This document shows positions 36,001 through 57,573 of a stretch of DNA of 64,000 nt, one piece after another. The position numbers and the translations under genes are program-made. The DNA lies in the IMG/VR virus record IMGVR_UViG_3300030419_006251, positions 96,001 through 160,000 of that record; one strand, given 5' to 3'. The notes under the pieces were generated by a model. That model did not search any database. It was not told the origin of the DNA and saw only the letters and a list, made by a program, of their open reading frames with translations. The first letter of the stretch is position 1; each line of letters opens with the position of its first letter. The stretch is from a virus. Taxonomy: Duplodnaviria > Caudoviricetes.

Positions 36001-39000
36001 AGTTTTCGATCGTTTGAGTCTAATTCGTGATAATACTTTTTAGTATCCTCCCATACGCGACCATAGGAAGAAACATATACATTTTTTCCTTGATAAGTGC
36101 CTAAAGAATTATCCCACGATTTTGAAAATCCGCCGTCAAGAGCACCATAACCAACACCTTCGACTGGATCAAAATTTAAAAATGTAAAATTTCTACCGTA
36201 ATTATCGATTACAGTGCTAGAGGCGATCTCCCTATGAACTCTAATTGTGGCGCCTTCTTCTGTAGCGCCTGAACGCATGATGTCTCGAAGATATTTTCCA
36301 ACTGTTTCTGGGTTTCCAGCAATTGCTTTTTCTAACAAATCGACCAATCTTCTATCGTGTTCTTGTTTTCCTCGGCCGTCCATGTCTGACTGGATTCTAT
36401 CCATTAATCCGCCGGGACCGATAAGCTCTCTTTCATATGTTATTTGCAAGAACTGAATATCATCTCCCACATCATTGGCGAACATACTACGATCAAAAGC
36501 AGTATCTCTAGGAAGAAAGCTGCCATCATCCATATTCTCACAAGGTATTAAAGAGCCTGTCGGCAGAAGATTACTAATATCTCCACCAGACTGCGCTAAT
36601 TTTAAAGCCTCATCAAGTGTAGAATCTAAATCTGCTAAAGTAGAATCCGTCAAATGCTCACATGCTTCTTCCGGGATTCCTAAATTACAAAATGCATCCT
36701 TAATAGGTTCTCGAACTCCACAAAACGGAATTACAGGCCCACAACCATCTTCGTCAACGCAACTCTTACTTTCCAAATAAGAATCTCTTAATGCGTCAAT
36801 AGTTTTGGTTCCAATAAAAGTTTGACCAATAGTTTTGTAAAGAGCGCGAAGATTGTTTGCATTTCCAAGTGTACCCGCCAAAGGTGTCTCGCTGTATCTA
36901 TAAAAGTCTGCTGCATCTCTTAATGCACGAGTTGATGGTGAACCACCGAGCAATTCTAAAGAGTCCCTTACTGATGCCACTTCCATATAGCTACCCATAG
37001 ATGTCAGGGCGATTTCGCCGATTGCAAGTAGCTCTTCTTCCGTCTGAGCGCCGGTGGCGCCTAAAGCAGATAAGATAGTCGCCATTGCTGTTGCTATTTC
37101 ATTGTCTGTAGCATTCGTGCCACACATAGTATCTTTTAACAAATTAGAGAACTCGCCGGCGCTCATTAAGCCAGTGGCCGTAAGTGCGGCTGAACCTAAA
37201 ACATTCATCAAAGAACAAAGTACTCCGAATATCCATTCAAGTATTTTTTTCAACATAGTCATTAAAGCTTGTACAATTGCTGCTTCCAAAGCGGCGAGTA
37301 TTAAATTGCCAATGGCTTTCATGGCATCCCAAAATCTATATGGTCTATTGAAAACAATTCTAGGAATTATAAGTGGTTTTCCAGATCTACAAAATCCGAA
37401 GTCCCACTGAGATATCGCCCTCGTCAGATCATTATACCAGCCCTTGATCGGCGGATGAAAAATTGCAACGCCAGGGCACTTAGTTAAGTCAATCAAATTT
37501 CTTAAAAATGTGAATCCAGGAATATTTTCTAATAAATCTAAAATTTCATCCGGTTGAAGCAAGTCCATTAAAGCTTTAATGTATGCGTCTTTGATATCTT
37601 TTACGGCGCCGGAATCTACTAAAACAGAACCTAATGTTTTTGTCTTGCTAGCATCATCTGTCCCTTGGTATGATGGGGTTATTGTTGCCGCATCGGCCAA
37701 ACCTTCTTCATAAGCTTCTTGTTTTGCAGCACTATTTACTGGATCGTCTATGCTGCTGTGTGAGGTTGTCCATCGAAGCGTTTCTGTCTGAGTAGTCGTG
37801 GTATAATCGTCGGGGCCCAAGCCGGTCTGTTCTGTAGTGGTTAAAGTGACTTCTTGTTCTCGATTCATGGTTGTCGGATTTTCATTCAACTGTTCTTGTG
37901 CGGCTTCATAGTGCTTTTGTATTGCCGCGTCTTGTAGTACCTGGGCTGTTCTTTGCTGCCTCTCCAGTGAAGGTTCCTTGTCCCATGGTCTCCAATCTTG
38001 AAGATTCTCAGAAAGGCCTGCGGTAGCGTTGGCAGCTATCTCATTCTGCACATGAGGAGGTAAACCTACCAGAAGCCTTTTAAACAAATTCATGTCCATA
38101 TTCTGAAGTGCGCTTATTAAGGCTTTTTCAAGAATGTCACCAAAATCTACACCATTGAACAGACATTGAAATAAAGTTTCCAAAAAGTCCAACAGACCAC
38201 AAACACCTAATTGGCCTAAAATCTTACGCCACAAGTCATCAGCCGATCTAATATAATCCAAACTATCAATCATTTGTGACATAAACGGATCATTAGTTAG
38301 TACTTGATTAACCGCGGCTTTTGTTGCCTCTTCTAAGTCTTGCCCAAATGGTGATTTAACGAGTTTCCCCTCGGGATCCCCCCGGGGATCACGAAGTCTA
38401 GTTCCGGTGTTTTCCGGGTCATCTGGTGTGTGGTATTTTGTCCAATAATCTGCCCACGCCTCAGAGCCTTCTTCGATCGTTTGGCAAAGCTGTTGATCGA
38501 ATTTGCTTGTTAAAGTTTCAATAAATACATTTACACCGCTCTGTAGGATTCCTTCTAAAGCGCTTGAGGTGGAATTGCAAGCAGGGTCGTTGTCCGCTAA
38601 TTCGTTAAAGTTCGCAATTCTTACTTTTGGATATGTCCATAATGTAATAAAGTCTTGCCACTCCATAGGAGTTGTGGCTTTTGCAACATCATCCATATAT
38701 GTAATCGAAGCAACATAAGCCATCGTTCGCGGATCTGTTTGAGGATAGGTATTAGCAAAATCATCCCATCCTTTTGCAATTTTAAACTCAGGATTAACAA
38801 ATGGGTTCATTAAATATTCTTCGTCATCATATTTTTCTTGCAACAATGTCTTATAATAGTCTTGCCCAGTAAGAGTGATGGGTGGGCAGCCCCGAAGATT
38901 ATATGTCACGCTTTGGATAGAATATGTTGGAGAAAATTCTATTTTTATATTCTCAATTCCATTTTTCTTGTTGTGTTCGCCCAAATAAGTAAATTGCCAT

Positions 39001-40970
39001 CCATCCGTATTTTCATTTAGAAAGTCTAATAAATTATTTTTAAAATCTCTTAAATTAGTGGCCTGTTGCACTAAATCTGAAGATGCAAGTATCTTCTTAT
39101 AGTTCGGCGGCTGTTCTTCGCCATATTTGGTATTTAACCATGTATTCCAAGCATTGAGTCGCTTAGTACTTACAGCAGGTTCGTAGGAGTCAATATTATC
39201 CTCTAGGTTTACAGACTCTGCATCTGAATATTCATCATCGTCAACCACCTCATCAACTTCCGGTACACCGGTATCTTCTAAGGTTTCGATAACGCACATT
39301 CGATTGTCTTCGTAGGCCATCGGCACTCGCTTTTTTCCATAATGATTAATTAACCATCTAACGCGAGTAAACATACCATCTGCCACATCTTCCGTTGTAA
39401 ATTCTACTTCATAAGGTAGACTTACATCAACGCCTTCTTCGCTAGTTACAGAATATGGTTGGTCTTCTCCGGGGGCGGCCTCTGGTATTTGACTAAATAT
39501 TAATGATGGTATGCATATTAATACTTTGATTCTGGAGCCTGCTGTATTTGAAACATACCAATCTGTGGCCATAACCTGATCATAAGTTAGTAAATATTGA
39601 CCAGCAGGACTCTGCTCAACATCGTACTGCCATGCCTTAGATGGTGTAGCAATACCCACATCTGCCGAAGGACCGCTAGAAACTTGTTGTTCTTCTTGTT
39701 CATGACTAATAAACTCTATATCTGCAGCTTCTTCCTCCTCCTCTTCGATCGCGGTTTCTTCCGTTACTTCTTCTTCATATTCAATAACCATAGTAGCCCA
39801 ATCTTCAAAAGTTTTGGGGTCATCATCGCTCAAGTATTCTTCATTGTGCGTCCGATTGCCAGTAACAAGATACATGCTCTCTATTTGATATAACACTGTA
39901 CTTTGTGATGAGGTTGCTTTATGGTATGATTCGTTATCGGCGTCCCAAACCCATAAGTTGCCAGCAAGATCTATGCGCAATCCAGTGGTAGATTTTGAAG
40001 TTGGTATGTATTCTGTTAAAGCGTCAGCCTTAGTAAGACTGGTTTCGTCAAATGCAATACCCTCTGCTTCGACATAATCTCTATATGTGCGCCAAGCGCT
40101 TGGCGCATCCTCATCTTCCGGGTCAGAAGAGACTTTAAAAAATGATGTCTCTGAATTCCAACCATATGGACTATTTGATCCATCCTCATTATCGGCATCG
40201 TAATACCAATCCTTTCCAGACGACGGGCTTCTGCTGACAGTTCCATGTTCAATAGGCTCGTTGTTCTCAGTCATATTGCCTTCGATGTCAAAATAGACGC
40301 GTTCTTTGCTAGCTGGGTCTATGGTTTCATAATCAGATGTATCTTCTGCATCTGCTGATCTAGTTGCACCCCCGCCTAGGCGCGCGCAGCCACTTTCTAT
40401 TGGAGATTCAAGAGAGCCTGGAGCAGGGATGGAGCCGTCCGGGCGACAGAGATCTAAAGGACCAACCCAATTAAGATCTTTTGCATAAAATCGAATTAAT
40501 TTAGCAAGGCCAGTGACTTTTGCCGATTCCATTACCGTGTTTTTAATCCAATCATCAAAGAGCGCGTCGGAATCAGTGCTCATCTCTATCCCCGACATGT
40601 CAGTCCAATCCTCAAGTGTATAGTCTGTCCACACAGTAACACAATAATCACAAGTTTTCTTATTTAGAAATGGTCTAACTCTGTTCTTCCAATCGGGAAT
40701 TTGAGATTCCGGATAATCCGGATCCGGAACACACTCCGGGCATAATGGCTCCGTACATATGTCATCTTCGTCTTCATCTTCCTCACAAGGAAAAATATCT
40801 GCTGCTGTTAAGTCAACTTCTTCTTCAGCCTCAGCGGCTTCAGTTTCTAGCTCGGGTGGGATGTCTGTCGGATCTATTGATGAGTCCGGATCTCTGTCGG
40901 TACCGACCTCAAGATCGTCTGCGGTATCTGTTGGATCTGTATCTGCTGTAGGATCTGTAGTCTCTGACAT
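33006..40970 (-). CDS. Giant acidic hypothetical protein (2654 aa), probably virion-associated
   Basis: 8-kb open frame between the spike-like and gp25 genes; D/E/T/P-rich N-terminus, Cys clusters, long helical hydrophobic segment; no family recognised. Confidence 0.6.
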   Translation of the reverse strand: MSETTDPTADTDPTDTADDLEVGTDRDPDSSIDPTDIPPELETEAAEAEEEVDLTAADIFPCEEDEDEDDICTEPLCPECVPDPDYPESQIPDWKNRVRPFLNKKTCDYCVTVWTDYTLEDWTDMSGIEMSTDSDALFDDWIKNTVMESAKVTGLAKLIRFYAKDLNWVGPLDLCRPDGSIPAPGSLESPIESGCARLGGGATRSADAEDTSDYETIDPASKERVYFDIEGNMTENNEPIEHGTVSRSPSSGKDWYYDADNEDGSNSPYGWNSETSFFKVSSDPEDEDAPSAWRTYRDYVEAEGIAFDETSLTKADALTEYIPTSKSTTGLRIDLAGNLWVWDADNESYHKATSSQSTVLYQIESMYLVTGNRTHNEEYLSDDDPKTFEDWATMVIEYEEEVTEETAIEEEEEEAADIEFISHEQEEQQVSSGPSADVGIATPSKAWQYDVEQSPAGQYLLTYDQVMATDWYVSNTAGSRIKVLICIPSLIFSQIPEAAPGEDQPYSVTSEEGVDVSLPYEVEFTTEDVADGMFTRVRWLINHYGKKRVPMAYEDNRMCVIETLEDTGVPEVDEVVDDDEYSDAESVNLEDNIDSYEPAVSTKRLNAWNTWLNTKYGEEQPPNYKKILASSDLVQQATNLRDFKNNLLDFLNENTDGWQFTYLGEHNKKNGIENIKIEFSPTYSIQSVTYNLRGCPPITLTGQDYYKTLLQEKYDDEEYLMNPFVNPEFKIAKGWDDFANTYPQTDPRTMAYVASITYMDDVAKATTPMEWQDFITLWTYPKVRIANFNELADNDPACNSTSSALEGILQSGVNVFIETLTSKFDQQLCQTIEEGSEAWADYWTKYHTPDDPENTGTRLRDPRGDPEGKLVKSPFGQDLEEATKAAVNQVLTNDPFMSQMIDSLDYIRSADDLWRKILGQLGVCGLLDFLETLFQCLFNGVDFGDILEKALISALQNMDMNLFKRLLVGLPPHVQNEIAANATAGLSENLQDWRPWDKEPSLERQQRTAQVLQDAAIQKHYEAAQEQLNENPTTMNREQEVTLTTTEQTGLGPDDYTTTTQTETLRWTTSHSSIDDPVNSAAKQEAYEEGLADAATITPSYQGTDDASKTKTLGSVLVDSGAVKDIKDAYIKALMDLLQPDEILDLLENIPGFTFLRNLIDLTKCPGVAIFHPPIKGWYNDLTRAISQWDFGFCRSGKPLIIPRIVFNRPYRFWDAMKAIGNLILAALEAAIVQALMTMLKKILEWIFGVLCSLMNVLGSAALTATGLMSAGEFSNLLKDTMCGTNATDNEIATAMATILSALGATGAQTEEELLAIGEIALTSMGSYMEVASVRDSLELLGGSPSTRALRDAADFYRYSETPLAGTLGNANNLRALYKTIGQTFIGTKTIDALRDSYLESKSCVDEDGCGPVIPFCGVREPIKDAFCNLGIPEEACEHLTDSTLADLDSTLDEALKLAQSGGDISNLLPTGSLIPCENMDDGSFLPRDTAFDRSMFANDVGDDIQFLQITYERELIGPGGLMDRIQSDMDGRGKQEHDRRLVDLLEKAIAGNPETVGKYLRDIMRSGATEEGATIRVHREIASSTVIDNYGRNFTFLNFDPVEGVGYGALDGGFSKSWDNSLGTYQGKNVYVSSYGRVWEDTKKYYHELDSNDRKLDKDESTAYDVWEVNEAYKRIATDWGVEYEYDPRYVIYRKYKIGKEKFHYYPEPHARMQFMGTDPSMGANSHKEAGQPAYHFHFWNEERNELDFIPEGYTDTALYDEEELTKDVGKLHIFRLVPNAIGVSRSSQAASSVGEYTMQFDKDRRGNFDSFFKGFGPLSNGAPNSSRSKSALDPIIRVVRALDSDILDHISSMELDVANRQQKPTIWATHITNVIESAIVESGEEAEQSNLESVWQKLYGQDYSGLCESFVEEYAAQISDDDDAWDSGLLNFYLKELSEEECLDAGISKFKGDDEDKKEIPLPRSTRKKNRKEFPYHPNNNEDTGWYRPVPVPGSEGLSEIVDLPEEEYGVGAYYVHQQYQKGWARIADEYLPGPANPCEEQVSADIFNWSGVAEHISKAMDNIDSDDRVSSDPSCVWDPPFDRVNDRESKAKIEGYIKATMRTTIFEKMICAVPAFMKFNPSTGCFGDLLAAYIFANLRESLFQYSRRSKIFGSLGRISKGHNRYDYKFLEQCCAMYARQVSAGNMSGSAEALMAVEKIDEINTKLYNQPQADWFHRKRKARRRKVWENSEPYMTTVAKELFRHEFEEGSGKFANWACSEIDNLQLHFLQGGLNLSEGPIGAYVTDVAVDLQEDRFGGEGYYSGNFAYLQNGGFVVEKYIKIEDYEDSSEAAIDLDTGSRSEHLFKIVNMEEWKTYLSENNNFTYTSTTEEGDEEDSYKISDLFEKWSYGLRLSYVPSFHGTSDIQQLCGQVSSDISLKNKAFNIEYLGGDPVNLIPIASTEIEIPGDLKINNFDIVEDYDFECMLDQFISDTEFRTLFEYVFALDRFLSLPTIYMMHCFLDSIGMDDGWYQEVSPENAPGDGPGDPYDGSRIGQFMRNIQHSAGPGLETGDWLLWFKGQQKKKSYRNWDKYGKAPPFGETKELLRDFFMHAYDWDNKVNGKFSLPKFKFKVNLPPFFDWNPKFFVNRQLEGPECDDDMGADAEKAAYNSG

Positions 40971-44721: not shown

Positions 44722-45714
44722 CTATATGCCTCTTTGAAATAAATCTTTTAAATCCGCTTCATACATCATAGCAGCTAACTCTTTGAAATTAACTTTTGGC
44801 TGCCATCCTAAAACTTCCTTCGCTTTAGTAGGATCTCCTAATAGAAGCGGAACTTCGTGTGGTCTAAATAGTCGCTCATCTATTTTAACATGTTTCTCTA
44901 TGCTTAAGCCGGCCTCTTCAAACACTGTCTCTAGAAATTCTCTAACAGTATGTGTTTCACCCGTTGCGATTACAAAATCATCAGGGGTTTCCTGTTGCAA
45001 CATGAGCCACATGGCTTCAACATAATCGCCGGCGAAACCCCAGTCTCTTTTTGCATCTAGGTTTCCTAAATATAGTGTATCTTCTAAACCAAGCTTAATT
45101 CTTGCAGCTGCTCTTGTAATCTTGCGTGTAACAAATGTTTCTCCTCTTCGTGGAGATTCGTGATTAAACAAAATTCCATTTGCTCCAAAAATATTGTAAC
45201 TTTCTCGATAATTCCGCACAATATTGTAAGCAAAGACTTTAGAACAAGCATATGGTGATGCCGGCATTAACCTAGTATCTTCATCTTGTGGATGAGCTGG
45301 ATTGTCTCCATACATCTCAGAGGACGATGCCTGATAAAACTTTGCCCATGGGCAAACATTTCTTACAGCTTCTAATAACCTGAGTGTTCCCATAGCAACA
45401 TAATTTGCTGTTTCTTCTGGAGTGTCAAAAGAGACTCGTACATGCGACTGTGCCGCTAAATTGTATACCTCGTCTGGTTTATATTTTGCCAATATTCTAT
45501 GCAAACATCCAGAATCGTTCACATTGCCGTATACTAAATCAAAATTTTCTATTTTGTCCGAGCTTTCAAATATATGATCGATCCGGTCTGTCGAAATTAG
45601 AGAAGTTCTTCTCTTCATCCCAATAACTCGATATCCTTTATCTATTAAAAAGTCTGCCAAATAAGAGCCGTCCTGTCCTGTAACTCCCGTAATTAATGCT
45701 TTTTTTTGTGTCAT
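44722..45714 (-). CDS. gmd: GDP-mannose 4,6-dehydratase
   Basis: [71 protein letters not shown]. Confidence 0.97.
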
Positions 45715-46637
45715 TTTGTTCCTCTAATGTTTGGATAATTTGTTAAAAACCAATCACATGAATTTTTAAGTGCTGTTTCGAAGTTTGTATACATGTTTTT
45801 ACGCCATCCTAACTGTAATAAGCTTTGATTGGTTGATGGCTTTCGAAACTGTCCTGACGGCTTAGATGTGTCCCATATAATTGAATTATGGTACTCAAGA
45901 TTGTGCGCTATCATCTGAGCTATAGTGCCGATTGAATATTCTCCCGTGTCTCCCACATTGATTGGGGCGCGGCCATCGTAATGTTCTAATAGAAATAATA
46001 AAATATTTGCTAAATCGACCGAATATGTAAATTCTCTCAGAGGAGTGCCATCACCCCATAATACAACATTCTCATTCTTTTGTTTAGCATTATACATTTT
46101 ATGTATTAAGGCAGGAATTACATGCGAGTCGTTTAAATCGTAATTGTCGTTTTCTCCGAATAAATTATTCGGTACCGCAGTAATAAAATTACAACCATAT
46201 TGATCGCGATAGGCCTGCGATTGTATATCCAACATACGCTTTGCGTGCGCATACGCATAATTTGACTTGTGCGGAGATCCACTATGAATTTGTTCTTCGG
46301 TTAAAGGATACATAACATTGTCTGGGTATATACATGTGCTCAAAAGTGACAGAACTTTTTCTGCTTTATGTTTATGTGCACTATCAAGCACATTTGTATT
46401 AATCCTAATATTATCAGAATAAAAATCTCCTAGATTCTCCATATTTGCTTTGATGCCACCGACTTTTGCTGCCAAATGAATCACTTGTTCTGGCTGATGT
46501 GTCCTAAACATTTCTTCGGCTTGTCGACGATCTCGTAAATCATAATCTGTAGAAGCTACAAAGGTTGCTTCTGGGATCAAGCGCTTAAGAGCGTGACCGA
46601 CCATACCCGAACCTCCAGTTACAAGAATTCTTTTCAT
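45711..46637 (-). CDS. fcl: GDP-L-fucose synthase (GDP-4-keto-6-deoxymannose epimerase/reductase)
   Basis: [27 protein letters not shown] (catalytic Cys), [29 protein letters not shown]; adjacent to gmd. Confidence 0.95.
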
Positions 46638-47983: not shown

Positions 47984-48709
47984 CTATCTCCTGTGTCTCC
48001 AGTTATTTAAAAATTTTGTAAGATCTTCTGGCGTTCCCAGGCCCCACATTTCAGATACATAAAATGGGATCAATGACTTACCATCTTGGATTAGTTCGTT
48101 ATAAACTGGAGCAATATAAAATTCATTATTGACTCGTATATCTTTCTCAATCATTTGTTTCGCATATTTAACAAAATCTGAGCCTTTACGATACCAATAA
48201 ATTCCACAAGTCGCAATATTTGAAATTGGTCGCTTTTCTGCTACCTCTGTAATAAATCCACGAGAATTTGTTTTTACAAAAGACCATTTTGGATGTACAG
48301 CATTGAAAGTAAACACAATCCCATCAACACTTGTAAGGCTCTTAAGTGTATCAAAATTATCTGGCTCATATTGAATAAACTGATCCGAATTTGCAATTAA
48401 AAGACTTTCATCGTTGTCAATATATTTTTCAGCTAAAAGCGCTGTGCAGGCGGCCCCTTCGGTTAATCCATTAACTGTTACATAATTGAAACGACCATTT
48501 GTAATTCTATCCAGCGTATCTAAAAGTCCAGAGTATTTCTGTACATGCTCTTCTCTAACAAGAAAAATATAATCACAATCAAAATCTAAATTTTCTACAA
48601 CGGATTGTATCATAGGCTTGCCAGCAACATCAATTAATGGCTTTGGAAAAGTATATCCCTCTTTTGCAAACCTGCTGCCTTCACCGGCCATTGGAATCAA
48701 GATCTTCAT
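47984..48709 (-). CDS. Sugar-phosphate nucleotidyltransferase (NTP_transferase family, capsule-locus type)
   Basis: ILIPMAGEGSRF..GYTFPKPLIDVAGKPMI (GxGxR..PK motif), LLIANSDQ, EVAEKRPIS. Confidence 0.85.
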   Translation of the reverse strand: MKILIPMAGEGSRFAKEGYTFPKPLIDVAGKPMIQSVVENLDFDCDYIFLVREEHVQKYSGLLDTLDRITNGRFNYVTVNGLTEGAACTALLAEKYIDNDESLLIANSDQFIQYEPDNFDTLKSLTSVDGIVFTFNAVHPKWSFVKTNSRGFITEVAEKRPISNIATCGIYWYRKGSDFVKYAKQMIEKDIRVNNEFYIAPVYNELIQDGKSLIPFYVSEMWGLGTPEDLTKFLNNWRHRR

Positions 48710-49316
48710 TTAAATACTCCTTAAATAATTTTATACATACATCATCAGGATTTTTGACCTGTATGATATTACAGCCAGAGGCAAGTGCCGCGGCCATTCC
48801 TTTGGGCGAATCCTCTACAATCAGCATAGAAGACTTGTCTATTTGAAAATGTTCCAAAACTTTAAGATACCCTTCTGGATGTGGTTTTGGATTTTTCACA
48901 TCTTGGTTAGTGATCACCAATTCAAACAAGTCAAAAATGCCGGTTTTTTGCAGCATTAAATCAGCAGTCATTCTGATACTGTTAGTATAGCATGCCACAT
49001 GTAATTGTCTATCTTTTAGCCAATTAATTAAATCTACTTTTTCTTGTCGTAATTCGGCATTTTCAGAAATAATTTTAACTGTCTTCTCTTGCTTCAAATC
49101 ATATACTCGCTCATGTTGTTCTTTGTTTAATATTCCCATTTCTGTTAGTTTGTTTAATTTTACTTTTGTAGGAATTCCATTAAAAGTTTTATAATGATCT
49201 TCGAGAGATATCTCATAATTGCATATTTCTTTTAACGATTCGTTCAAAGCAACTCGATGCCATTCACATGCGTCGACAAGCACCCCATCTAAATCGAATG
49301 TAACTAACCTAATCAC
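48681..49316 (-). CDS. HAD-superfamily phosphatase (beta-PGM-like)
   Basis: TFDLDGVLVD motif I, TNS, KPHPEGY, IVEDSPKG. Confidence 0.9.
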   Translation of the reverse strand: MIRLVTFDLDGVLVDACEWHRVALNESLKEICNYEISLEDHYKTFNGIPTKVKLNKLTEMGILNKEQHERVYDLKQEKTVKIISENAELRQEKVDLINWLKDRQLHVACYTNSIRMTADLMLQKTGIFDLFELVITNQDVKNPKPHPEGYLKVLEHFQIDKSSMLIVEDSPKGMAAALASGCNIIQVKNPDDVCIKLFKEYLNEDLDSNGR

Positions 49317-49668
49317 CTTTCATAATCCTGTGGCTGTCGCTGTCAAAGTGTTGTGTAGAAAATTCAAAAAGCTCTGTATCTTCTAATGCTATCATTTGAT
49401 GTCGAAGGCCACGATATACATGAAAGTTGTCGCCGCGCTCCAATATTAGCTCTTCTGCTTCTGCTATGTCATCTTTCTCAGAATATTTTACCAGCATTTT
49501 TCCAGATTGTATATAAAAAACCTCGTCTTTTAACTTATGATAATGCCAAGAGCAGCGCTTTCCCTTTACAAAATAAAGAAGTTTGCCACAGTATTCGTCA
49601 TTATTAACAATCCATTTTTCAAAGCCCCAACCTTTAGGGACAAAATTCATTTCTAAAGAAGTCTTCAT
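49309..49668 (-). CDS. Cupin-domain sugar isomerase-like protein (mannose-6-phosphate isomerase type II / D-lyxose isomerase-like)
   Basis: VPKGWGFE..GKRCSWHYHKLKDEVFYIQSG (HxH-E) and HQM motif 2; the start may be ATG at 49650. Confidence 0.75.
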   Translation of the reverse strand: MKTSLEMNFVPKGWGFEKWIVNNDEYCGKLLYFVKGKRCSWHYHKLKDEVFYIQSGKMLVKYSEKDDIAEAEELILERGDNFHVYRGLRHQMIALEDTELFEFSTQHFDSDSHRIMKGD

Positions 49669-49966
49669 CTCTTATTCCTCTGTCATCGACATAAATATCG
49701 CCGGCAGGTTTTCCCAAAAAGAGCATATGGTGTTTTACGCCCCATTCTTTTAGCTGCGCAGCTGTTTTATCATATAAATCTTTAATGGCCTTTTCGGCAT
49801 CATTGTTGTGTCTTCCCATTCCGCGGGCAGTCTGCATTATAATTGTGTTGCCCTGTTCATATAAAGCGTTAACAACCTTTACTCTTTCGACTATAGGCAT
49901 TGCTTTTTCGTATTCACCATAAGTGTTTGTACATATAGTTCCATCGATATCAAAAACATATGTCAT
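49634..49966 (-). CDS. Small HAD phosphatase (capsule-biosynthesis phosphatase type)
   Basis: YVFDIDGTIC, QTARG, LGKP, IYVDD; ATGA overlap with the transaldolase stop. Confidence 0.85.
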   Translation of the reverse strand: MTYVFDIDGTICTNTYGEYEKAMPIVERVKVVNALYEQGNTIIMQTARGMGRHNNDAEKAIKDLYDKTAAQLKEWGVKHHMLFLGKPAGDIYVDDRGIRDEDFFRNEFCP

Positions 49967-50631
49967 TTTATCCACCTTTCAAAGTCTTTCATAAAGCCCT
50001 CTACAGATTCATCAGTTTTAACATGCGAGGTAGCCTTTTTAATAACAGAATACCCTGCTGTTACTATGTGGCATCCTTGGTTCCAACAATTAGATAAATC
50101 ATATGCATTGCGTATAGAGCCTGCGATGATTTCGCAATCTAATTTGTTATCATCGATAAACTTACGAGTTCTTCGAAGTACTTCGAGCGGATCTCCACCA
50201 ACATCTATTAGTCGGTTATAAAATAGTGAAACATATCGAGCCCCGGAAAGGGCTGCTAGTTGCAATTGTGTATCGCTAAAACAACAAGTACAATTAACTC
50301 GGATTCCTTGTTTTTTAAGTTGATCTATTACTCTTAATTCTTCAAAGCCTACAGGAATCTTAATATTCAAGTTCTTATAATCTATTCTTTCGCATATTTC
50401 AACAGCTTGTAATATCATGGAATCCGGCTCAGTAGCAAATACTTCAACCGAGACCGGGATGTCTACGCCGTACTGTACACACAAATCACAAATTTTTTGT
50501 ATGTGGTCATAAAAGTCTGTTTTTGGTTCTTTAGCCAAAAGGGAAGGATTAGTAGTTATCCCTTGTATGACTCCCTTTTGTAATAAGCTTTCTATTTCTT
50601 TCAAATTAGCAGTATCTGCAAATAATTTCAT
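49963..50631 (-). CDS. tal: Transaldolase (small TalC/FSA-type subfamily)
   Basis: LFADTA, GITTNPSL, VSVEV, NIKIP (Schiff-base Lys), YVSLFYNR, AGSIR. Confidence 0.9.
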   Translation of the reverse strand: MKLFADTANLKEIESLLQKGVIQGITTNPSLLAKEPKTDFYDHIQKICDLCVQYGVDIPVSVEVFATEPDSMILQAVEICERIDYKNLNIKIPVGFEELRVIDQLKKQGIRVNCTCCFSDTQLQLAALSGARYVSLFYNRLIDVGGDPLEVLRRTRKFIDDNKLDCEIIAGSIRNAYDLSNCWNQGCHIVTAGYSVIKKATSHVKTDESVEGFMKDFERWIK

Positions 50632-50632
50632 T

Positions 50633-51043
50633 TTATTCCTCGATGTGTTTATAGGTTTTGCCGTCTTCTACGATATGTGAGTCTCCATCGTCGTCCAGTG
50701 TTGAAAACTCAATAATTACGGTATCTTCTAATGCGATTCTCATATGCATAAATCCAACAGGTATATGAAAGACATCTCCTTCATTTAAGATAAGCGAGGT
50801 GTTCTTGGCGCGACCTATCCTTGTTCCCACTTTAAGTTTTCCAGACTCTATGTAATATGATTCTTCTTTTTTTATATGATATTCCATACTACTTTGAGTG
50901 CCCTTCTTCATAAAAATTCTTTTAACTGTATAGTGTTCATTTTCGAAAAGAGTCTTCATATTTCCCCAATATTTATCGACCTCTTTTATAACTCCATGAA
51001 TTGGAGGCAATTCTTGTCTTCCATATTTTATATCATTGGCCAT
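50633..51043 (-). CDS. Second cupin-domain sugar isomerase-like protein
   Basis: VDKYWG..GTQSSMEYHIKKEESYYIESG..HMR; ATG at 51043 preferred over the track start at 51121. Confidence 0.7.
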   Translation of the reverse strand: MANDIKYGRQELPPIHGVIKEVDKYWGNMKTLFENEHYTVKRIFMKKGTQSSMEYHIKKEESYYIESGKLKVGTRIGRAKNTSLILNEGDVFHIPVGFMHMRIALEDTVIIEFSTLDDDGDSHIVEDGKTYKHIEE

Positions 51044-51716
51044 AATATTTTTCTTTTCCATTCTTGCGAAAAAAGTGTTTATCAATAACATATTTTGGTA
51101 TACGCATACTGCTTGCTCCAATTAAAGTTAAACTCTTGTACGCCATCTCCGCAACCAACTCTAAAACATAGGCCGTTTCTAATGTTTGTTCTATCGATGG
51201 CCCCCAAATAAAAGCGCCGTGGCCGGAAACCAACGAACAAGGCATTCTTTTGTAGTCAATGCCAGATGATTTAAAATATTTACAAATTTCTACACCTGTT
51301 TCAAGTTCATAATTGGTTTCTATCTGTCGTCTGTTCGGGTGTGGAACACAGGGTATATCTCCATAAAAATAATCTGCGTGTGTTGTTCCCAAGCAGGGTA
51401 TTTGCCTATTAGCTTGTGCAAATGTAGTGCTGTATTTGGAATGTGTATGTACTATGCAATTAATATTATTGAAATTCTTATAGATCTCCAAATGTGTAGG
51501 TGTATCGACGGATGGTTTTTTGCCATCAATTTTTTGACCGTATATTGTCAAAACAGATATATCCTCTTCTGTCGCAGCATCTAAATCAACTCCAGATGGT
51601 TTTATATAGATTATATCTCCTTGCCTGTAACTCACATTTCCCCAAGTTAACTCTACCAAGTCTTTTTCGACAATCCACCTATTGGCCTTTAAAACTTCTT
51701 TCTTAATTGAGCGCAT
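51033..51716 (-). CDS. araD: L-ribulose-5-phosphate 4-epimerase-like class II aldolase/epimerase
   Basis: TWGNVS, IKPSGV, KPSVDTPTH, HTHS, GTTHADYFYGDIP, LVSGHGAFIWG; C-terminal KHFFRKNG..YYGQ. Confidence 0.9.
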   Translation of the reverse strand: MRSIKKEVLKANRWIVEKDLVELTWGNVSYRQGDIIYIKPSGVDLDAATEEDISVLTIYGQKIDGKKPSVDTPTHLEIYKNFNNINCIVHTHSKYSTTFAQANRQIPCLGTTHADYFYGDIPCVPHPNRRQIETNYELETGVEICKYFKSSGIDYKRMPCSLVSGHGAFIWGPSIEQTLETAYVLELVAEMAYKSLTLIGASSMRIPKYVIDKHFFRKNGKEKYYGQ

Positions 51717-52635
51717 AGAAATCCTCGTATGTAGGAGGCTTAGTGCCCATATTCAATGTTGATGCAGCTGCCCATTTGTTGCAGAATTCAAGATCAAAAT
51801 CGGGATATTTTACAGCAAATGCTGCGAGGAACGAGTCGCCGGCGCCGCAAGAATCTTTCGCTTCTATTGGATATCCGCCATGATGAATTACTCTGTTGCC
51901 ATCATATAAAACGCTGCCGCGAGATCCTAAAGTAACACAGATTCCCGCTCTTAAATTTTCCGAAAGTTCTTTCAATTGATTTAATACTGGTTTAAATGAA
52001 TTTGATGGACAATACAAAGATTTAAGATTATTAGTTGCCTCAGTTTCGTTCATACAAATAAGATTCGAGCCGGCGAAATGAAAATATTGATTTTTTCCGT
52101 CTGATATTTGCGAACTAGCGATGACTTTTATATCCCTCTCTTTCAAAAGTGATATTAATTCTTGAGTTTGTTTGGCATTATTGAAGAACCCCTTTCTGTA
52201 ATCTACTAGTAGTGCTGTTTCAAAACTTTCATTGTTTATTTTGTCTTTTATTTGCTGGATGTGCTCATTAGTCAACGAAACCTGTTGACCTCTATTAACT
52301 TGTAAAAATTTATACTTATTATCACCCTTACTTATCCAATATCTTGATTTAACGGTATTTTTACCACTGTGTTCTATCAAATATAAATCAAGATTTTCCG
52401 ATTTCCAAGAATTGAGAACATCTTTGTGTGCATCTTGCCCATTAGCTGTAATAAAAGTGACCTTTGCTGATAGAGATAACAAGTTACTAACCACATTGGC
52501 CGCTCCTCCAAAAGTGTATTCTTCTTCTACGAACTCGGTTTTCATAGTCGGAGTTTCTAGCGATATACCTATTGGGTTGCAAAAAATAGAATGATCTATG
52601 ATTGTATCGCCTATAACCAATATATTATCTTTCAT
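51703..52635 (-). CDS. PfkB-family kinase resembling the HldE/RfaE heptose-7-phosphate kinase domain
   Basis: LVIGDTIID..ISLETP..GGAANV, VDYRKG, NETE, VTLGSRG, DSCGAGDSF. Confidence 0.8.
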   Translation of the reverse strand: MKDNILVIGDTIIDHSIFCNPIGISLETPTMKTEFVEEEYTFGGAANVVSNLLSLSAKVTFITANGQDAHKDVLNSWKSENLDLYLIEHSGKNTVKSRYWISKGDNKYKFLQVNRGQQVSLTNEHIQQIKDKINNESFETALLVDYRKGFFNNAKQTQELISLLKERDIKVIASSQISDGKNQYFHFAGSNLICMNETEATNNLKSLYCPSNSFKPVLNQLKELSENLRAGICVTLGSRGSVLYDGNRVIHHGGYPIEAKDSCGAGDSFLAAFAVKYPDFDLEFCNKWAAASTLNMGTKPPTYEDFYALN

Positions 52636-53491
52636 GCTTATCCCAATGTTGCTTTTCGTGAATTTTCTTTATTACACTTGTGGTGGAATAATTTTCCAAA
52701 AATGGATAAATTTTGATATCAATATGTCGTGGGATTCCATCTCTGGCCCTGACTTCTTCGGAAGTCCACTCTCCACCTTTGACAACAATAGATGGATCAA
52801 TCGCCTCAATAATACCAATACTCTTTGTATTATCAAATATAACCACCTCATCGACACAATGCAAGGATTCTAGTATTTTTTTTCTGTCATTTTGATTATT
52901 AATCGGCCGATCTGGCCCTTTAAGTTGCCGAACACTATTATCAGAATTGATTCCTACCACCAATTTATCTCCGAGAGATTTAGAAAAATTCAGTAATTCA
53001 ATATGACCTGTGTGTAGGATATCGAAGACCCCGTTTGTAAAGACCACTCTTTTCTTCTTAGAAGATAGTTTTTCGACTCTCTTAACATGGCGACCTTCTC
53101 CAAACTTAGTTTGCAGCCACAAATCTAAAATTTTAAAGTTTTCTTCTTCAGAGGTAGTCCAGTGTCCTAAACATAATATATTTGAATCATTGTGTTCTCT
53201 GCATTTAGGGGCCGTAGTAACATTATGCACCAATGCTGCTCTGACTTTTTCAAATCGGTTTGCCGCTATGCTCATTCCGACTCCGGTGCCACATATCAAT
53301 ATACCACTCTGTATATCGTCGTTAGTCAACATTTGACTTAACTGGTTCGCATAGTCTACATAATCTACTTTTCTTGCCTCGTCAAATGGTCCAATATCTA
53401 CAGCAATAAAATTGTTTTCTTTGAGATATTTTCGTATTTTATTTTTTAATGCTATTCCGTTATGATCGGAGGAAAGTCCTATTATTTTCAT
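52625..53491 (-). CDS. Fusion of ribose-5-phosphate isomerase B (RpiB/LacAB) and an HldE/RfaE domain II nucleotidyltransferase
   Basis: N-half: SSDHNG, DYVDYA, ICGTGVGMSIAAN, REHNDSN, GEGRHVKRV. C-half: VFTNGVFDILHTGH, GINSDNSVRQLKGPDRPIN, VKGGEW, YSTTSVIKKI. Confidence 0.9.
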   Translation of the reverse strand: MKIIGLSSDHNGIALKNKIRKYLKENNFIAVDIGPFDEARKVDYVDYANQLSQMLTNDDIQSGILICGTGVGMSIAANRFEKVRAALVHNVTTAPKCREHNDSNILCLGHWTTSEEENFKILDLWLQTKFGEGRHVKRVEKLSSKKKRVVFTNGVFDILHTGHIELLNFSKSLGDKLVVGINSDNSVRQLKGPDRPINNQNDRKKILESLHCVDEVVIFDNTKSIGIIEAIDPSIVVKGGEWTSEEVRARDGIPRHIDIKIYPFLENYSTTSVIKKIHEKQHWDKHER

Positions 53492-53501
53492 ATCGCTCTC
53501 T

Positions 53502-54182
53502 TTAGGATTTTGTATATTTTACTATATTCCATTTATCTGAAAATTTAAACGATGTCGGCTTGATTGTGTGAAAAAATAATTTATCTGTTTTATGTGTCAT
53601 GCCATCAATAAGGTTGATAACACTACTATCAATACAATGTATTTCTGATGCATTTTGGATAATTTTTACATAATCGAGCAAGTTCTCCGTCAATCCGGGG
53701 CGAATTTCTATTACTGGTAATTTTGATTTTATATCCACAAAAAACTTTCCTATGCTGGACTGTTGGTGTAATAAAACATAATCCTTTTTGGTGTGCACTA
53801 AAGTCTCGTATAGTTTATCAGAATTTGGTATGTGGCTCGGCAGTTTAAAGTTTGAATATCTGATGGAAAAATCTAGGTTTAATTGTTCATAAAAGCATAT
53901 ATTACATTCTAATTCGCAAGTATCTAAATATTCAAATCCAACTCTAAGTACCGGTAGCTTCTTAGTATTACAGTAGTCTATAACATCCCTGTGTTCTACG
54001 GCCACAGGAAACACTGTTATATTATCCCAATCTTGATATAGGCACTGTACAGTATTAAAGTTGTGAAGCTTGGCTGGTAAATGAATTTTATCGTATGTTG
54101 TTGCAACTTGATGTACTAAGCCGTTGCATACGAAATGATCGCCCAAACCTAAGTGGTGATGTAGAACAACTTCTTTATTCAT
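53502..54182 (-). CDS. Putative GT9 (heptosyltransferase)-like glycosyltransferase
   Basis: N-terminal HLGLGDHF and C-terminal IIQNASEIHCIDSSVINLI resemble the GT9 xGD and DSxxxHL motifs; divergent. Confidence 0.45.
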   Translation of the reverse strand: MNKEVVLHHHLGLGDHFVCNGLVHQVATTYDKIHLPAKLHNFNTVQCLYQDWDNITVFPVAVEHRDVIDYCNTKKLPVLRVGFEYLDTCELECNICFYEQLNLDFSIRYSNFKLPSHIPNSDKLYETLVHTKKDYVLLHQQSSIGKFFVDIKSKLPVIEIRPGLTENLLDYVKIIQNASEIHCIDSSVINLIDGMTHKTDKLFFHTIKPTSFKFSDKWNIVKYTKS

Positions 54183-55068
54183 CTTTAAGCCAATTTTCTA
54201 ATTTAATTTTTGGCGTCCAGTTGAGCAAATTCTGCGCTTTTGTATTATCAGCCAATGAAATTTCAGCTTCCGCTGGGCGAGGCGGAATGAAAGTATATTC
54301 TCCTCCGACAAGTTTTGCTAGCTCAACAATGCTGTGATTTTCTCCCGTTCCTATGTTTATAAGTTGGCCAATTGGCTTCTTATTTTCTAAATCTGCTGCT
54401 AATATATTAGCGGCGACTACATCAAGCACATTGGTAAAGTCTCTTCGCTGCCTTCCTGAGCCTATTATAGTCATCGGCAGACCCGCACCCTTCTGTCTTA
54501 GAAAGAGACCTACTACGGGTGCATATTGTCCTCTTACGGGCTGCCTTTTTCCATATACATTAAAATATCTGAAGACAACGGTTTCAAGCCCATATAAATC
54601 CATATACATTTTACACAAATCTTCGCCGGCACATTTCGAAATTGAATAAGGATTTAAACAATCTCGCGGCATATCCTCGTGGAGTGGAGGAATGTTTTTA
54701 AGTCCATAAGCAGCAGAAGTAGAGGAATAAACTACCCGTTTAACACCAGCTTCGCGTGATGCTTGAAGTATGTTGCATGTGCCGACAGTGTTTACGGTTG
54801 TTGCATAAATAGGATTGTGAATAGCTGGCTGGATTCTTGACTCAGCTGCTAGATGAAAAACAACATCGATATCTGTAAATAAGTGTCGTATTGCATCATA
54901 TTCGCAGATATCATATTTATAGTTTTTTGCATTCTCGTTCCAGTAAAATTGTTCATGTGCATCGGAAGACTCATTATCAATAACTATTACCTCATGTTCT
55001 AAATTGATCAATTCGTCAACTAAATTGCTTCCAATAAATCCAGCGCCGCCCGTAACTAAACATCTCAT
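54175..55068 (-). CDS. NAD-dependent nucleotide-sugar epimerase/dehydratase (extended SDR)
   Basis: VTGGAGFIGSNL, HLAA, YSSTSAAYG, NPYSISK (YxxxK), RYFNVYG, RDFTNV. Confidence 0.9.
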   Translation of the reverse strand: MRCLVTGGAGFIGSNLVDELINLEHEVIVIDNESSDAHEQFYWNENAKNYKYDICEYDAIRHLFTDIDVVFHLAAESRIQPAIHNPIYATTVNTVGTCNILQASREAGVKRVVYSSTSAAYGLKNIPPLHEDMPRDCLNPYSISKCAGEDLCKMYMDLYGLETVVFRYFNVYGKRQPVRGQYAPVVGLFLRQKGAGLPMTIIGSGRQRRDFTNVLDVVAANILAADLENKKPIGQLINIGTGENHSIVELAKLVGGEYTFIPPRPAEAEISLADNTKAQNLLNWTPKIKLENWLKDE

Positions 55069-56024: not shown

Positions 56025-56698
56025 TTTAATATCTCACTGTTATAAAGGCCGCATTGCGAACCTTGTCTTGTAATTGGTGGCTCCCACCAATATACTTTCA
56101 TATCCGCCTCCTTCATATGATAATTGATCTCGAAATCAATTGGAAGCGTAAATGGTTTTGTATTCTTGTTTATTATAGCAGCTGCTTCATAGTTTATTAA
56201 ATACGAATCTACACATTTGCTAGCCGGATGTTCTTTGCGATATGCCACAACTCCGTCTTTCACCTTTCTTTTAGGAATTCTTAAATTACAACCATTGCCT
56301 ATAAAAATCAAATCCCAATCTTTTGGAGTCGATAGCAAATTAAAATTAAACACTTCAACAAATCTATCACTAAATAACAAATCATCTTCTAAAATAAGGG
56401 CGGTAGATATTTTATTATTTACAATATCTTCCCAGATTTTAATATGTTTATATGCAATTGATTTTTCAGATTTAGTAAGTTCTTTCCAAGGTATTGGGCC
56501 GCCATAATCTAAACTAAAAATTTTTTTATACCACAAATCACAATTACTATCATAGATCTCACCTAACTGCTTCTCAGTTGGCTCACACTCAATCCATGTT
56601 ACATCAATATTAAACTCTTGAAGTGTTTTGAGTAATTTTTCTTTTCTTTCTCGCAGCGGAGTATAATGAGCTACATAAATCTTATCAACCATCAACAT
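56021..56698 (-). CDS. GT25-family glycosyltransferase (Lex2B-like)
   Basis: IYVAHY..ERK, HIKIWEDIV, ALILEDD, YLINYEAA, PID. Confidence 0.8.
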   Translation of the reverse strand: MLMVDKIYVAHYTPLRERKEKLLKTLQEFNIDVTWIECEPTEKQLGEIYDSNCDLWYKKIFSLDYGGPIPWKELTKSEKSIAYKHIKIWEDIVNNKISTALILEDDLLFSDRFVEVFNFNLLSTPKDWDLIFIGNGCNLRIPKRKVKDGVVAYRKEHPASKCVDSYLINYEAAAIINKNTKPFTLPIDFEINYHMKEADMKVYWWEPPITRQGSQCGLYNSEILK

Positions 56699-57573
56699 AT
56701 TATATTCTCCTCAAAAAACTTAAGCACTGATTCGGGCTTAACCGAGTCTGGAATTTTTCCTGATGGGAAAACCGGGGCTGTGATGTATTGTTCATATAAA
56801 CTATCGTCTGATTCAATTTCCTCAATTAAATCGACTACTTCAACCAAATCATTAAATTTATGTACATCAATAAATGCGTCTTTGTTGAAGTCCAAATGAG
56901 CAATCGGAGATCCCCAATAGATAGGAATACTACCAATCGACAATGGGTGCAACAACTTTTCTGTTGTATATCCCGGATGCGATGAATTTTCTGCCGCAAT
57001 TGTAAACCGGTAATTTGAAATAAAATCTACTTTGGGCTTCTGATCTCCTCGACCCGGAATTCGTTGACCCATATTGTTTAAAAGACTGCCGGCAGAGTCA
57101 ACTCGCTCGTACATTGAAATTTCATTTAACAGTGGTACTCGAATTCCCGTATGGTTGGAAAAAATAAAATTACAAAACTTTGGTTTCTTCCTTATTTTTC
57201 GAGGGCCAATTAAATTATTTAAAGGAGTTAAATAAGAAACATCTCGCTCTTCTGAGTGGGGTACATTGAACCAATTAATCCACAGCACCCAGAGAGGTAG
57301 GCGATAGTTTTTTGGGTTGTCCGAAAAATCAAATGAAAATGCAAATTCGCATTCATCGAAATTGGGCCTTTTATTCTCGCCAGTATAATAAACCTTTCGC
57401 GTCGTGCTGTGCGCTTTGTGCGAAGTTCCGAAATCTGCATAAAAAAGAATATCTGGAGTTTCGCTTATCTCCACATCGTACTTGGTCGAAAGAAGATGAT
57501 AAAAATAATTGTCCGTTGCAACAAAGTTTGGCCAAAAGTCAGCAAAGTTAATTTTTAACTTCATATATCCCAC
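56692..57573 (-). CDS. Alpha-1,3/4-fucosyltransferase-like (GT10)
   Basis: KFCNFIFSN, YRFTIAAENSSHPGYTTEKLL (GT10 fucosyltransferase motif), IPIYWG; gmd and fcl lie in the same island. Confidence 0.85.
   Translation of the reverse strand: MGYMKLKINFADFWPNFVATDNYFYHLLSTKYDVEISETPDILFYADFGTSHKAHSTTRKVYYTGENKRPNFDECEFAFSFDFSDNPKNYRLPLWVLWINWFNVPHSEERDVSYLTPLNNLIGPRKIRKKPKFCNFIFSNHTGIRVPLLNEISMYERVDSAGSLLNNMGQRIPGRGDQKPKVDFISNYRFTIAAENSSHPGYTTEKLLHPLSIGSIPIYWGSPIAHLDFNKDAFIDVHKFNDLVEVVDLIEEIESDDSLYEQYITAPVFPSGKIPDSVKPESVLKFFEENIIC

Follow-up and report, generated by a model that had tools for sequence, protein, structure and literature searches.

The window analysed here is a stretch of 64,000 nucleotides, bases 96001-160000 of a 200,760-bp virus record (IMG/VR record IMGVR_UViG_3300030419_006251) that is rated 100% complete. 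All long open reading frames (ORFs) of the window lie on the minus strand. One of them, at 52625..53491 (-), runs without interruption for 288 amino acids (aa) and, judged from its sequence, encodes a Cys-type RpiB isomerase joined by a Lys-rich flexible linker to a nucleotidyltransferase (NT) of the HldC/HldE-domain-II type. The RpiB domain occupies aa 1-146 (53054..53491, minus strand) and is matched by PF02502, TIGR01120 and Foldseek. It is followed by the inter-domain linker SSKKKR (aa 143-148; 53048..53065, minus strand) and the NT domain (aa 149-279; 52655..53047, minus strand; PF01467). The Pfam models place LacAB_rpiB (PF02502) on residues 4-142 (E 2.8e-46, 157.3 bits vs a cutoff of 24.7) and CTP_transf_like (PF01467) on residues 151-274 (E 1.1e-17). 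Among the NCBIfam models for the RpiB half, TIGR00689 scores 165.8 bits against a cutoff of 88.3, and the rpiB equivalog TIGR01120 passes marginally (138.9 bits against 138.65).

The original prediction, made from the letters of the window, was that an RpiB isomerase is fused here to an HldE-type NT with its motifs intact (DH, CGTG, HNxxN, GRH..R, SSKKKR and STTSVIKK). The single 288-aa ORF, the two Pfam domains and a two-domain structural model all bear this out, and every motif is present. In the RpiB half these are D9-H10, C67-G-T-G70, H100-N-D-S-N104 and G133-R-H-V-K-R138, followed by S143-SKKKR148 in the linker and by H160-T-G-H163 and S269-TTSVIKK276 in the NT half. A stop between the domains had also been considered. 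There is none at the junction, where the DNA has no long homopolymer, and in an alignment of fusion homologues the linker letters vary with the frame open throughout. The AlphaFold2 (AF2) model, built from a 13-sequence alignment, has a mean predicted local distance difference test score (pLDDT) of 85.4 and a predicted TM-score (pTM) of 0.50. It consists of two confident domains (block mean pLDDT about 80-96) separated by a low stretch at about residues 131-150, with pLDDT 60-67 across the linker. In Foldseek searches the N-terminal half matches the solved RpiBs 3HE8, 2VVR and 3K7S (37-42% identity, TM-score on the target 0.85-0.9) and the C-terminal half matches Burkholderia HldC 5XF2 (44-46% identity). 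A phmmer search of the PDB concurs for the latter (HldC 5X9Q, E 1.4e-30). The fusion is a genuine architecture and no artefact. One further candidate, P0133, was dropped as a tandem RpiB-RpiB protein.

The RpiB half looks like an ordinary member of its family. Residues D9, H10, C67, T69, H100, N101, N104, R134, H135 and R138, which we take to be the catalytic and phosphate-binding sites, show little or no variation among 13-16 fusion homologues. Every residue that is conserved in stand-alone RpiB relatives is also kept in the fused RpiB, and there are just three differences, all of them conservative. The fused active site therefore appears indistinguishable from that of stand-alone RpiBs, with no sign of remodelling. 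Enzymes of the RpiB/LacAB family act on C5 and C6 sugar phosphates (ribose-5-P, allose-6-P and galactose-6-P). A canonical RpiB works on 3R ketoses that bear their phosphate on C5 or C6; sedoheptulose-7-P (S7P) is 3S and has a longer chain. Three cellular genomes that bear the gene cassette described below (G001, G002 and G003) each also encode a stand-alone RpiB. Because these carriers keep a separate enzyme, the fused RpiB is not the housekeeping one. The relatives also include a fusion of RpiB to a glycosyltransferase of family 9 (GT9) (P0154, 289 aa) and a 4856-aa protein with two RpiB domains (P0188).

The NT half carries the motifs HTGH (160-163), KGPDRP (a KGxxRP motif, 191-196), R203, KGGEW (238-242), VRxRD (247-251) and YSTT (268-271). 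Nearly all columns that are invariant in HldE-type proteins are kept, and identity to the NT domains of those proteins is typically 40-55%, reaching about 56%. In a quick maximum-likelihood tree with many weak forks, all 18 fusion NTs fall into one group (SH-aLRT 94) among predominantly kinase-NT (HldE-type) proteins. The same group takes in two fusions of other kinds, one of a transaldolase (Tal) to an NT and one of a short-chain dehydrogenase/reductase (SDR) to an NT. Longer fusions with an extra NT also occur: P0002 (L008 7623-9017) is an RpiB-NT-NT protein of 464 aa and P0049 an NT(partial)-RpiB-NT protein of 469 aa. Outside the window there is a second small CTP_transf_like gene (G000:C1:165400-165708, in L002) whose product is 29% identical to the NT domain, and another locus (L003) has a comparable 157-aa gene 7 kb from its cassette.

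Which nucleotide would this NT use? PMC11573728 and PMC11461863 describe an STTR5 motif (Tang et al. 2024), (F/L)XXGRSTT, that marks promiscuous heptose nucleotidyltransferases and in which the Arg immediately precedes STT. According to the latter source, the motif is not strictly needed. The original prediction had placed the Arg five residues after STT, which is wrong, and it had taken the Lys found there as a hint of ATP preference. That hint fails. Five residues past STT, 34 of 72 HldE-type relatives have Lys and 21 have Arg, so that both are common there, and this position is not the reported determinant. The window NT reads FLENYSTT, with Tyr for Arg and Asn for Gly, and so lacks the STTR5 motif. 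Tyr precedes STT in 32/40 fusions and is also the commonest residue there in HldE-type relatives, of which 5/72 have Arg. Because Tyr and not Arg stands before STT, the fusion NT is not predicted to be broadly promiscuous under the published rule, and ATP would be the expected nucleotide by default.

The same architecture is found far beyond this phage. In a collection of 5.8 billion proteins, at least 120 clusters (90% identity) span the full fusion at 58-86% identity with both Pfam domains, and about 14 representative clusters at 50% identity have the RpiB-NT architecture. In IMG/VR the full fusion turned up on 54 viral contigs, of which 41 differ in their DNA. A tblastn search of the fusion against 50,697 GenBank phage records gave single-domain matches only, none covering 80% or more of it, and neither megablast of a 6.8-kb region nor blastn of the capsid locus found a match in those records. 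When 185,579 species-representative genomes were searched, the full-length fusion was present in 3 of the best 80 matches. These are a contig of a 'Woesearchaeota' metagenome-assembled genome (MAG), an Acidobacteria UBA contig and a 267-kb contig of a Pelagibacteraceae single-cell genome. The fusion is thus common in uncultured marine viruses and present in some uncultured cells, and has no name there beyond 'RpiB' or 'rfaE domain'. A literature search found no paper on the RpiB-NT architecture or on the cassette. Three heptose-NT architectures are described in PMC11573728, namely NT alone, kinase-NT and GmhA-kinase-NT. The earlier statement that no characterised protein with this architecture was known therefore holds insofar as no describing paper was found and the fusion lies outside those three. 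It does not extend to uniqueness, given the at least 120 metagenome clusters. Since the architecture is rare in isolate genomes yet common in metagenomes, it is better called uncharacterised than unique.

The fusion stands at the head of a tightly packed six-gene cassette in which frames overlap or abut. The next gene downstream (51703..52635, minus strand) encodes a PfkB-family sugar(-phosphate) kinase that is distantly HldE-I-like (Pfam PfkB E 1.6e-25), and its first 11 nt are shared with the end of the fusion gene. Its best NCBIfam match, TIGR02198 (E 9e-34), is 117 bits, far under the cutoff of 345. The ribokinase model TIGR02152 also matches (E 2.4e-18), and the catalytic GAGD motif lies at residue 264. 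Next comes an AraD-like 4-epimerase of the class II aldolase fold (51033..51716, minus strand), which just passes the cutoff of the NCBIfam AraD-subfamily model NF006047 (259.5 vs 257). Over its whole length it can be aligned with E. coli AraD 1JDI (E 5.7e-55, about 50% identity), and the HTH segment, D120 (mutated in 1K0W) and the C-terminal YYGQ segment are conserved. D76, H95, H97, H171, D120, Y229, N28, K42, S44 and G45, presumably the metal, catalytic and phosphate-pocket residues, align as conserved positions.

The third gene (50633..51043, minus strand) encodes a cupin resembling type II phosphomannose isomerase (PMI), with Pfam matches to Cupin_1 and MannoseP_isomer. In the mechanical ORF the first codon is a TTG at 51121, which would give an overlap of 89 nt with araD. 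However, homologues begin near 'M..(D/E)IKYG', and the start is therefore probably the ATG at 51043 (or 51061), the former giving 136 aa. Numbered from that ATG, E54, H56, E61 and H100 are invariant in 15 homologues, and we take them to be metal ligands by analogy with type II PMI. The cupin is the best-conserved protein of the cassette, and its cellular versions are bicupins. A phmmer search of the PDB gave weak oxalate-decarboxylase matches only, so the PMI-like reading depends on Pfam and the motifs. Beyond the cupin lies a TalC-type transaldolase (49963..50631, minus strand; Pfam TAL_FSA E 2.1e-45) with D6, E63, the Schiff-base K91 and F137. Its matches to PDB transaldolases (3R8R, 1VPX and 3S0C, E 1e-34 to 1e-37) are stronger than those to fructose-6-P aldolases (1e-17 to 1e-22), and Glu63, Lys91 and Phe137 align with B. 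subtilis Tal. By these alignments the protein is of the transaldolase type and not the aldolase type. Last is a minimal, capless phosphatase of the haloacid dehalogenase (HAD) family (49634..49975, minus strand; 113 aa) with DIDGT, TAR and GKP...DD motifs. In the PDB this mini-HAD matches the 'capsule biosynthesis protein' 9IQW (E 4e-12) and 1XPJ (E 1.8e-6), and there is a weak Pfam match to HAD_PNKP.

On the upstream side, 10 nt separate the fusion start from the end of a gene (53502..54182, minus strand) that encodes a 226-aa protein without a Pfam or PHROG match. Its AF2 model (pLDDT 94.7, pTM 0.91) and Foldseek identify it as a compact, heptosyltransferase-like protein of the GT9 fold. The ten best Foldseek matches in the PDB are all GT9 (including 3TOV, TibC 4RAP/4RB4, WaaF 1PSW and WaaC 2H1H), with probability about 1.0 and TMq 0.52-0.66, and BLASTP gives a weak local match to the C-terminal motif of the SAR11 GT9. 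The next gene (54175..55068, minus strand) encodes an NAD-dependent SDR epimerase/dehydratase (Pfam Epimerase E 5.5e-56), whose NCBIfam matches (GalE, LegB and heptose_epim) are all under cutoff. It possibly modifies a nucleotide sugar, and many loci have an orthologue (47-65% identity) 3-9 kb from the cassette.

How constant is this arrangement? The window proteins were run by tblastn against fetched loci, and counts were made on the 36 viral loci with at least 3.8 kb downstream of the fusion. PfkB is found in 35/36, directly downstream of the fusion, and the cupin and Tal are each found in 35/36 as well. The AraD-like gene is present in 32/36. A mini-HAD gene lies within 4.5 kb downstream in 26/36 and elsewhere in others. 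The exact gene order of the window recurs in 22/36. AraD is missing from four loci, and one phage genome that is 93% complete has no AraD anywhere. The identities of cassette proteins to those of the window are alike with and without AraD, with no systematic difference on which to base a conclusion. In 16 other viral loci the fusion is preceded by a gene for a 289-aa protein without a Pfam match (L003 9132-10001 and 15 others), which may be another transferase. It was considered as a relative of the GT9-fold protein of the window and is unrelated to it (hhalign probability 0.3).

Cellular loci show what can be rearranged. A Deltaproteobacteria MAG (L007) has GT9, fusion, PfkB, AraD, cupin, Tal and small HAD genes. 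Another MAG (L008) has a GT9-GT2 fusion protein, the RpiB-NT-NT protein, PfkB, AraD and HADs. The SAR11-type Pelagibacteraceae single-cell genome AG-900-G16 (L011) has SIS, GT9, Tal, fusion, PfkB, cupin, AraD and small HAD genes. The order in a fourth locus (L145, in MAG GCA_041643395.1) is GT9, methyltransferase, SDR, Tal-NT, PfkB, bicupin and second Tal, and the contig shows no RpiB. Here the NT is fused to the transaldolase (P0137, L145 8001-9074) and groups with the NTs of the RpiB-NT fusions, which we count as Rosetta-stone evidence for the cassette. A gene matching Pfam GT9 adjoins the cassette in all four of these loci. The core common to all variants is NT, PfkB, cupin and Tal. Because this core is constant, the PMI-like cupin is the most economical candidate for a ketose-to-aldose isomerase. 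Tal seems central to the cassette, being present in 35/36 loci and fused to the NT in the L145 variant, and RpiB and AraD look like add-ons that shape or supply the substrate. An RpiB-AraD fusion (P0135, 376 aa) was not used as Rosetta-stone evidence. It lies on a 3-kb contig beside an inositol phosphatase and a SWEET transporter, an unrelated context, and its AraD part is merely 32% identical.

The isomerase of the canonical heptose pathway, GmhA, is a SIS-domain protein, and a search for it (SIS_2) found no match in this complete phage genome or in four other cassette phage genomes that are at least 93% complete. The SAR11-type locus differs. It has genes for a GmhA-like SIS protein and a GT9 directly upstream of the cassette. 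At 9 kb from the cassette it also has a 495-aa protein (L011 3-1487, minus strand) with an N-terminal NT and a C-terminal PfkB, the reverse of the HldE order. The SIS gene and the separate NT-PfkB protein suggest that a canonical heptose pathway lies beside that cassette. When the SIS protein of this locus was run by tblastn over 62 fusion loci, it matched only L011 itself, in a search for which no SIS profile was run over the loci.

What might the cassette make? We think it likely that this is a GmhA-less, pentose-phosphate-fed cassette that makes a higher-carbon sugar phosphate and activates it to a nucleotide sugar for GT9-type transferases. Tal would begin by making a 2-ketose phosphate, either S7P from erythrose-4-P or octulose-8-P from ribose-5-P, and an isomerase would convert this to an aldose phosphate. 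The PfkB kinase would then phosphorylate O-1 and the mini-HAD would strip the distal phosphate. The NT domain would couple the resulting sugar-1-P to a nucleoside monophosphate (most likely AMP from ATP), and the GT9-like protein would consume the nucleoside diphosphate (NDP) sugar so formed. Where present, the AraD-like enzyme would yield a stereo-variant by inverting a (3S,4R) ketose phosphate at C-4. The sugar would most likely be an unusual C7 or C8 sugar that serves cell-surface or virion glycans.

Where does RpiB fit into such a scheme? The option that we rank first, tentatively and by analogy with a known octose pathway (see below), is that RpiB makes ribose-5-P from ribulose-5-P as the acceptor for Tal, with the cupin as the isomerase, so that octulose-8-P would lead to an NDP-octose. 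Extended to all carriers, this would mean that marine phages, SAR11-type bacteria and others encode a GmhA-independent, neutral-octose route ending in ADP-octose for GT9-like enzymes, which is possible but doubtful. The two fused activities do not directly follow one another in the route, and for that reason the fusion is more likely to ensure stoichiometric co-expression or co-assembly than to channel an intermediate. The flexible linker suggests the same. The original prediction that the fusion ties the isomerase to sugar activation, which speaks against a plain pentose-phosphate role, is supported by the conserved glycan cassette and by the three genomes with a separate RpiB.

Several observations weigh against the idea of a cassette for a higher-carbon sugar, or against its octose version. 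The results here leave room for a C5, C7 or C8 sugar. We know of no neutral octoses in bacterial surface glycans, and GT9 enzymes are known chiefly as users of ADP-heptose. On both counts a heptose is more plausible than an octose. The AraD-like protein looks canonical, which speaks for pentulose-5-P as its substrate, and neither a heptose nor an octose route accounts for that. This is the least well explained feature of the cassette, and pentulose-5-P or the C-4 inversion of any (3S,4R) ketose phosphate would both fit it. The NT scores 158.4 bits with the NCBIfam model for rfaE_dom_II (TIGR02199), short of the cutoff of 181.5. It also has family-specific changes, which are C155V, GGDY to GGEW (241-242) and the invariant R248, R250 and D251 where HldE types have V/G/A. 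Because of the low score and these changes, its substrate may differ from heptose-1-P. The NT tree is a quick one over 138 columns, in which many forks have no resolution. Lastly, the SAR11 locus does have a GmhA-like SIS gene beside its cassette, and a host GmhA could serve the phage.

What if RpiB is the pathway's own isomerase and replaces GmhA? In this hypothetical scenario RpiB would convert S7P, or a 4-epimer made by AraD, to an aldoheptose-7-P, possibly with a non-manno C-2, and the cupin would be a later epimerase or a second isomerase. A precedent of sorts is that one of the architectures in PMC11573728 already fuses GmhA, together with a kinase, to an NT. GmhA is also absent from 5/5 near-complete cassette phage genomes, and the GT9 neighbours point to a heptose donor. 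The RpiB/LacAB family does act on C5 and C6 sugar phosphates. Nevertheless, we consider this scenario rather unlikely. By established stereochemistry S7P differs in its C-3 configuration from the substrates of a canonical RpiB and is longer than they are, and an RpiB with only three conservative differences shows no remodelling of its active site. In addition, the Tal-NT variant shows no RpiB on its contig yet keeps a (bi)cupin, which makes the cupin the constant candidate for the isomerase, and a highly conserved PMI-like cupin would be left without a clear role. Perhaps, then, the cupin is simply an analogue of GmhA and the product is ordinary ADP-D-glycero-D-manno-heptose. RpiB, AraD and Tal would be mere feeders or balancers of the pentose-phosphate pool and the fusion would be chemically meaningless. 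A PMI-type cupin, if the motif is read correctly, would, like GmhA, yield manno stereochemistry, almost every HldE-type invariant residue is retained in the NT, and GT9 genes are adjacent. However, the GmhA-like gene and the separate NT-PfkB near the cassette of the SAR11 genome would make such a cassette redundant. The substitutions in the GGDY region are invariant and the NT misses the curated HldE-II cutoff. It is hard to explain why at least 120 clusters should retain the fusion of a mere feeder RpiB to the NT, and L-ribulose-5-P, the product of AraD, would be useless for S7P supply. An ordinary ADP-heptose is therefore improbable.

The sugar could also be smaller than C7. The AraD-like protein and RpiB both look fully canonical for C5 phosphates, and the PfkB is also ribokinase-related (TIGR02152). 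One could thus imagine that AraD turns xylulose-5-P into L-ribulose-5-P, and that RpiB or the cupin isomerises this, or D-ribulose-5-P, to an aldopentose-5-P. Phosphorylation of O-1, dephosphorylation of O-5 and nucleotidylation would then give an NDP-pentofuranose. This leaves no role for Tal, which is in 35/36 cassettes and is fused to the NT in the variant. Moreover, some cassettes lack AraD, as does one phage genome that is 93% complete, and the NT and GT9 point to heptose-like donors, all of which makes an NDP-pentofuranose quite improbable. At the other extreme, the RpiB half might be a plain auxiliary metabolic gene that raises ribose-5-P for phage nucleotides (compare talC of cyanophages), with the fusion incidental or an artefact. 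RpiB does look canonical, it marginally passes the rpiB equivalog cutoff, and a transaldolase is nearby. But the fusion is conserved, with varied linkers, in cellular genomes as well as in 41 distinct viral loci, its surroundings are invariably glycan loci, the cellular carriers keep a separate RpiB, and the junction has neither a stop nor a long homopolymer. Such a reading is hardly credible, being already largely refuted by the kept fused frame and the genomic context.

The surroundings of the cassette are those of a glycan island in a large phage. The genome encodes a major capsid protein of the T4 type (Pfam Gp23) and, at 30542-32344, a gp6-like baseplate wedge, and no psbA was found in it. 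The nearest cultured relative of the capsid protein is that of Flavobacterium phage vB_FspM_immuto (45% identity). These three features, the T4-type capsid, the gp6-like wedge and the relation to immuto, point to a distant T4-like marine phage as the source. The capsid protein itself (634 aa; G000:C1:69470-71374; L005 1450-3354, minus strand) matches Gp23 in two separated pieces, probably because of an insertion domain, and its nearest relatives are those of Flavobacterium phage immuto, Microcystis phage Mel-JY01 and Rhodothermus phage RM378. The wider island, at about 44.7-63.1 kb of the window, holds about 10 glycosyltransferases and what looks like a separate GDP-mannose/GDP-fucose set. All of this set is on the minus strand: Gmd (44722-45714), an SDR (45711-46637), an NTP_transferase (47984-48709), HAD_2 (48681-49316), a PMI-like cupin paralogue (49309-49668) and, beyond the cassette, a GT10 fucosyltransferase (56692-57573). 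Just downstream of the island, two giant ORFs of 3772 aa and 2654 aa (17289-28607 and 33006-40970, minus strand) adjoin the baseplate wedge and presumably encode fibre or host-recognition proteins.

The cassette is abundant in ocean viral metagenomes and here lies within a glycan/host-recognition island of a large T4-like phage. Its location and abundance suggest that it probably alters host surface glycans or decorates virions, and a role in glycans would bear on marine phage-host recognition. The synthesis of NDP-heptoses is viewed as well mapped, with three architectures, and its products are innate-immune agonists and building blocks of lipopolysaccharide (LPS). With the cassette, RpiB-NT (and also Tal-NT) would become a fourth architecture, and the pathway would gain a start that is free of GmhA. 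An octose route, if true, would be the first to lie outside antibiotic biosynthesis, and its product would be a new class of building block for surface or virion glycans.

How does all this compare with known systems? Marine T4-like phages have a host-recognition cluster in which rfaE-like genes and many glycosyltransferases lie beside tail/baseplate genes (PMC7029224). The island described here likewise adjoins the baseplate and giant fibre-like ORFs. In contrast to the LPS-related genes of pelagimyophages and cyanomyophages, however, it contains the RpiB fusion and the cassette, neither of which is in PMC7029224, and this phage has an immuto-like capsid and no psbA. Next to solved RpiB/AlsB enzymes (E. 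coli 1NN4/2VVR, C. thermocellum 3HE8 and T. cruzi 3K7S), the N-terminal half is 37-42% identical and keeps the conserved residues. It differs in being a second, dedicated copy, joined to an NT within a glycan cassette, and its substrate is a prediction only. The C-terminal half shares with HldE-II and HldC the fold and the motifs HxGH, KG..RP and (I/Y)STT. As with those enzymes, a kinase follows, here a distantly HldE-I-like one, and a HAD phosphatase and a GT9-fold transferase are nearby, but the fusion NT is joined to RpiB and not to a PfkB kinase or to GmhA-kinase, and it has no STTR5 motif. Compared with the canonical ADP-heptose pathway as a whole (GmhA, HldE or HldA plus HldC, GmhB, HldD and GT9), GT9 genes or folds are again adjacent and the donor is predicted only, whereas the SIS-domain GmhA is absent from the cassette phages in 5/5 near-complete genomes.

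A parallel in logic is offered by the lincosamide octose pathway (LmbR/LmbN/LmbP/LmbK/LmbO), which likewise proceeds by transaldolase, isomerase, anomeric kinase, phosphatase and NT. LmbP is a GHMP-type kinase and LmbO an NTP_transferase-type enzyme. Besides the transaldolase, then, the families differ, as the cassette has a PfkB kinase, an HldC-type NT and, where the lincosamide pathway has a SIS isomerase, a cupin and/or RpiB, and its context is that of a phage or cell-surface glycan and not of an antibiotic cluster. LmbR moves a C3 unit from fructose-6-P or S7P onto ribose-5-P (PMC5854111), so a ribose-5-P-forming isomerase in the cassette would supply the known acceptor of LmbR. In the lincomycin case the phosphatase step is carried out by LmbK and the NT step by LmbO, and the pathway leads to GDP-octose (PMC12945683). 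As far as its sequences can tell, the cassette would work like the ADP-heptose pathway or the lincosamide octose pathway, built from partly different folds.

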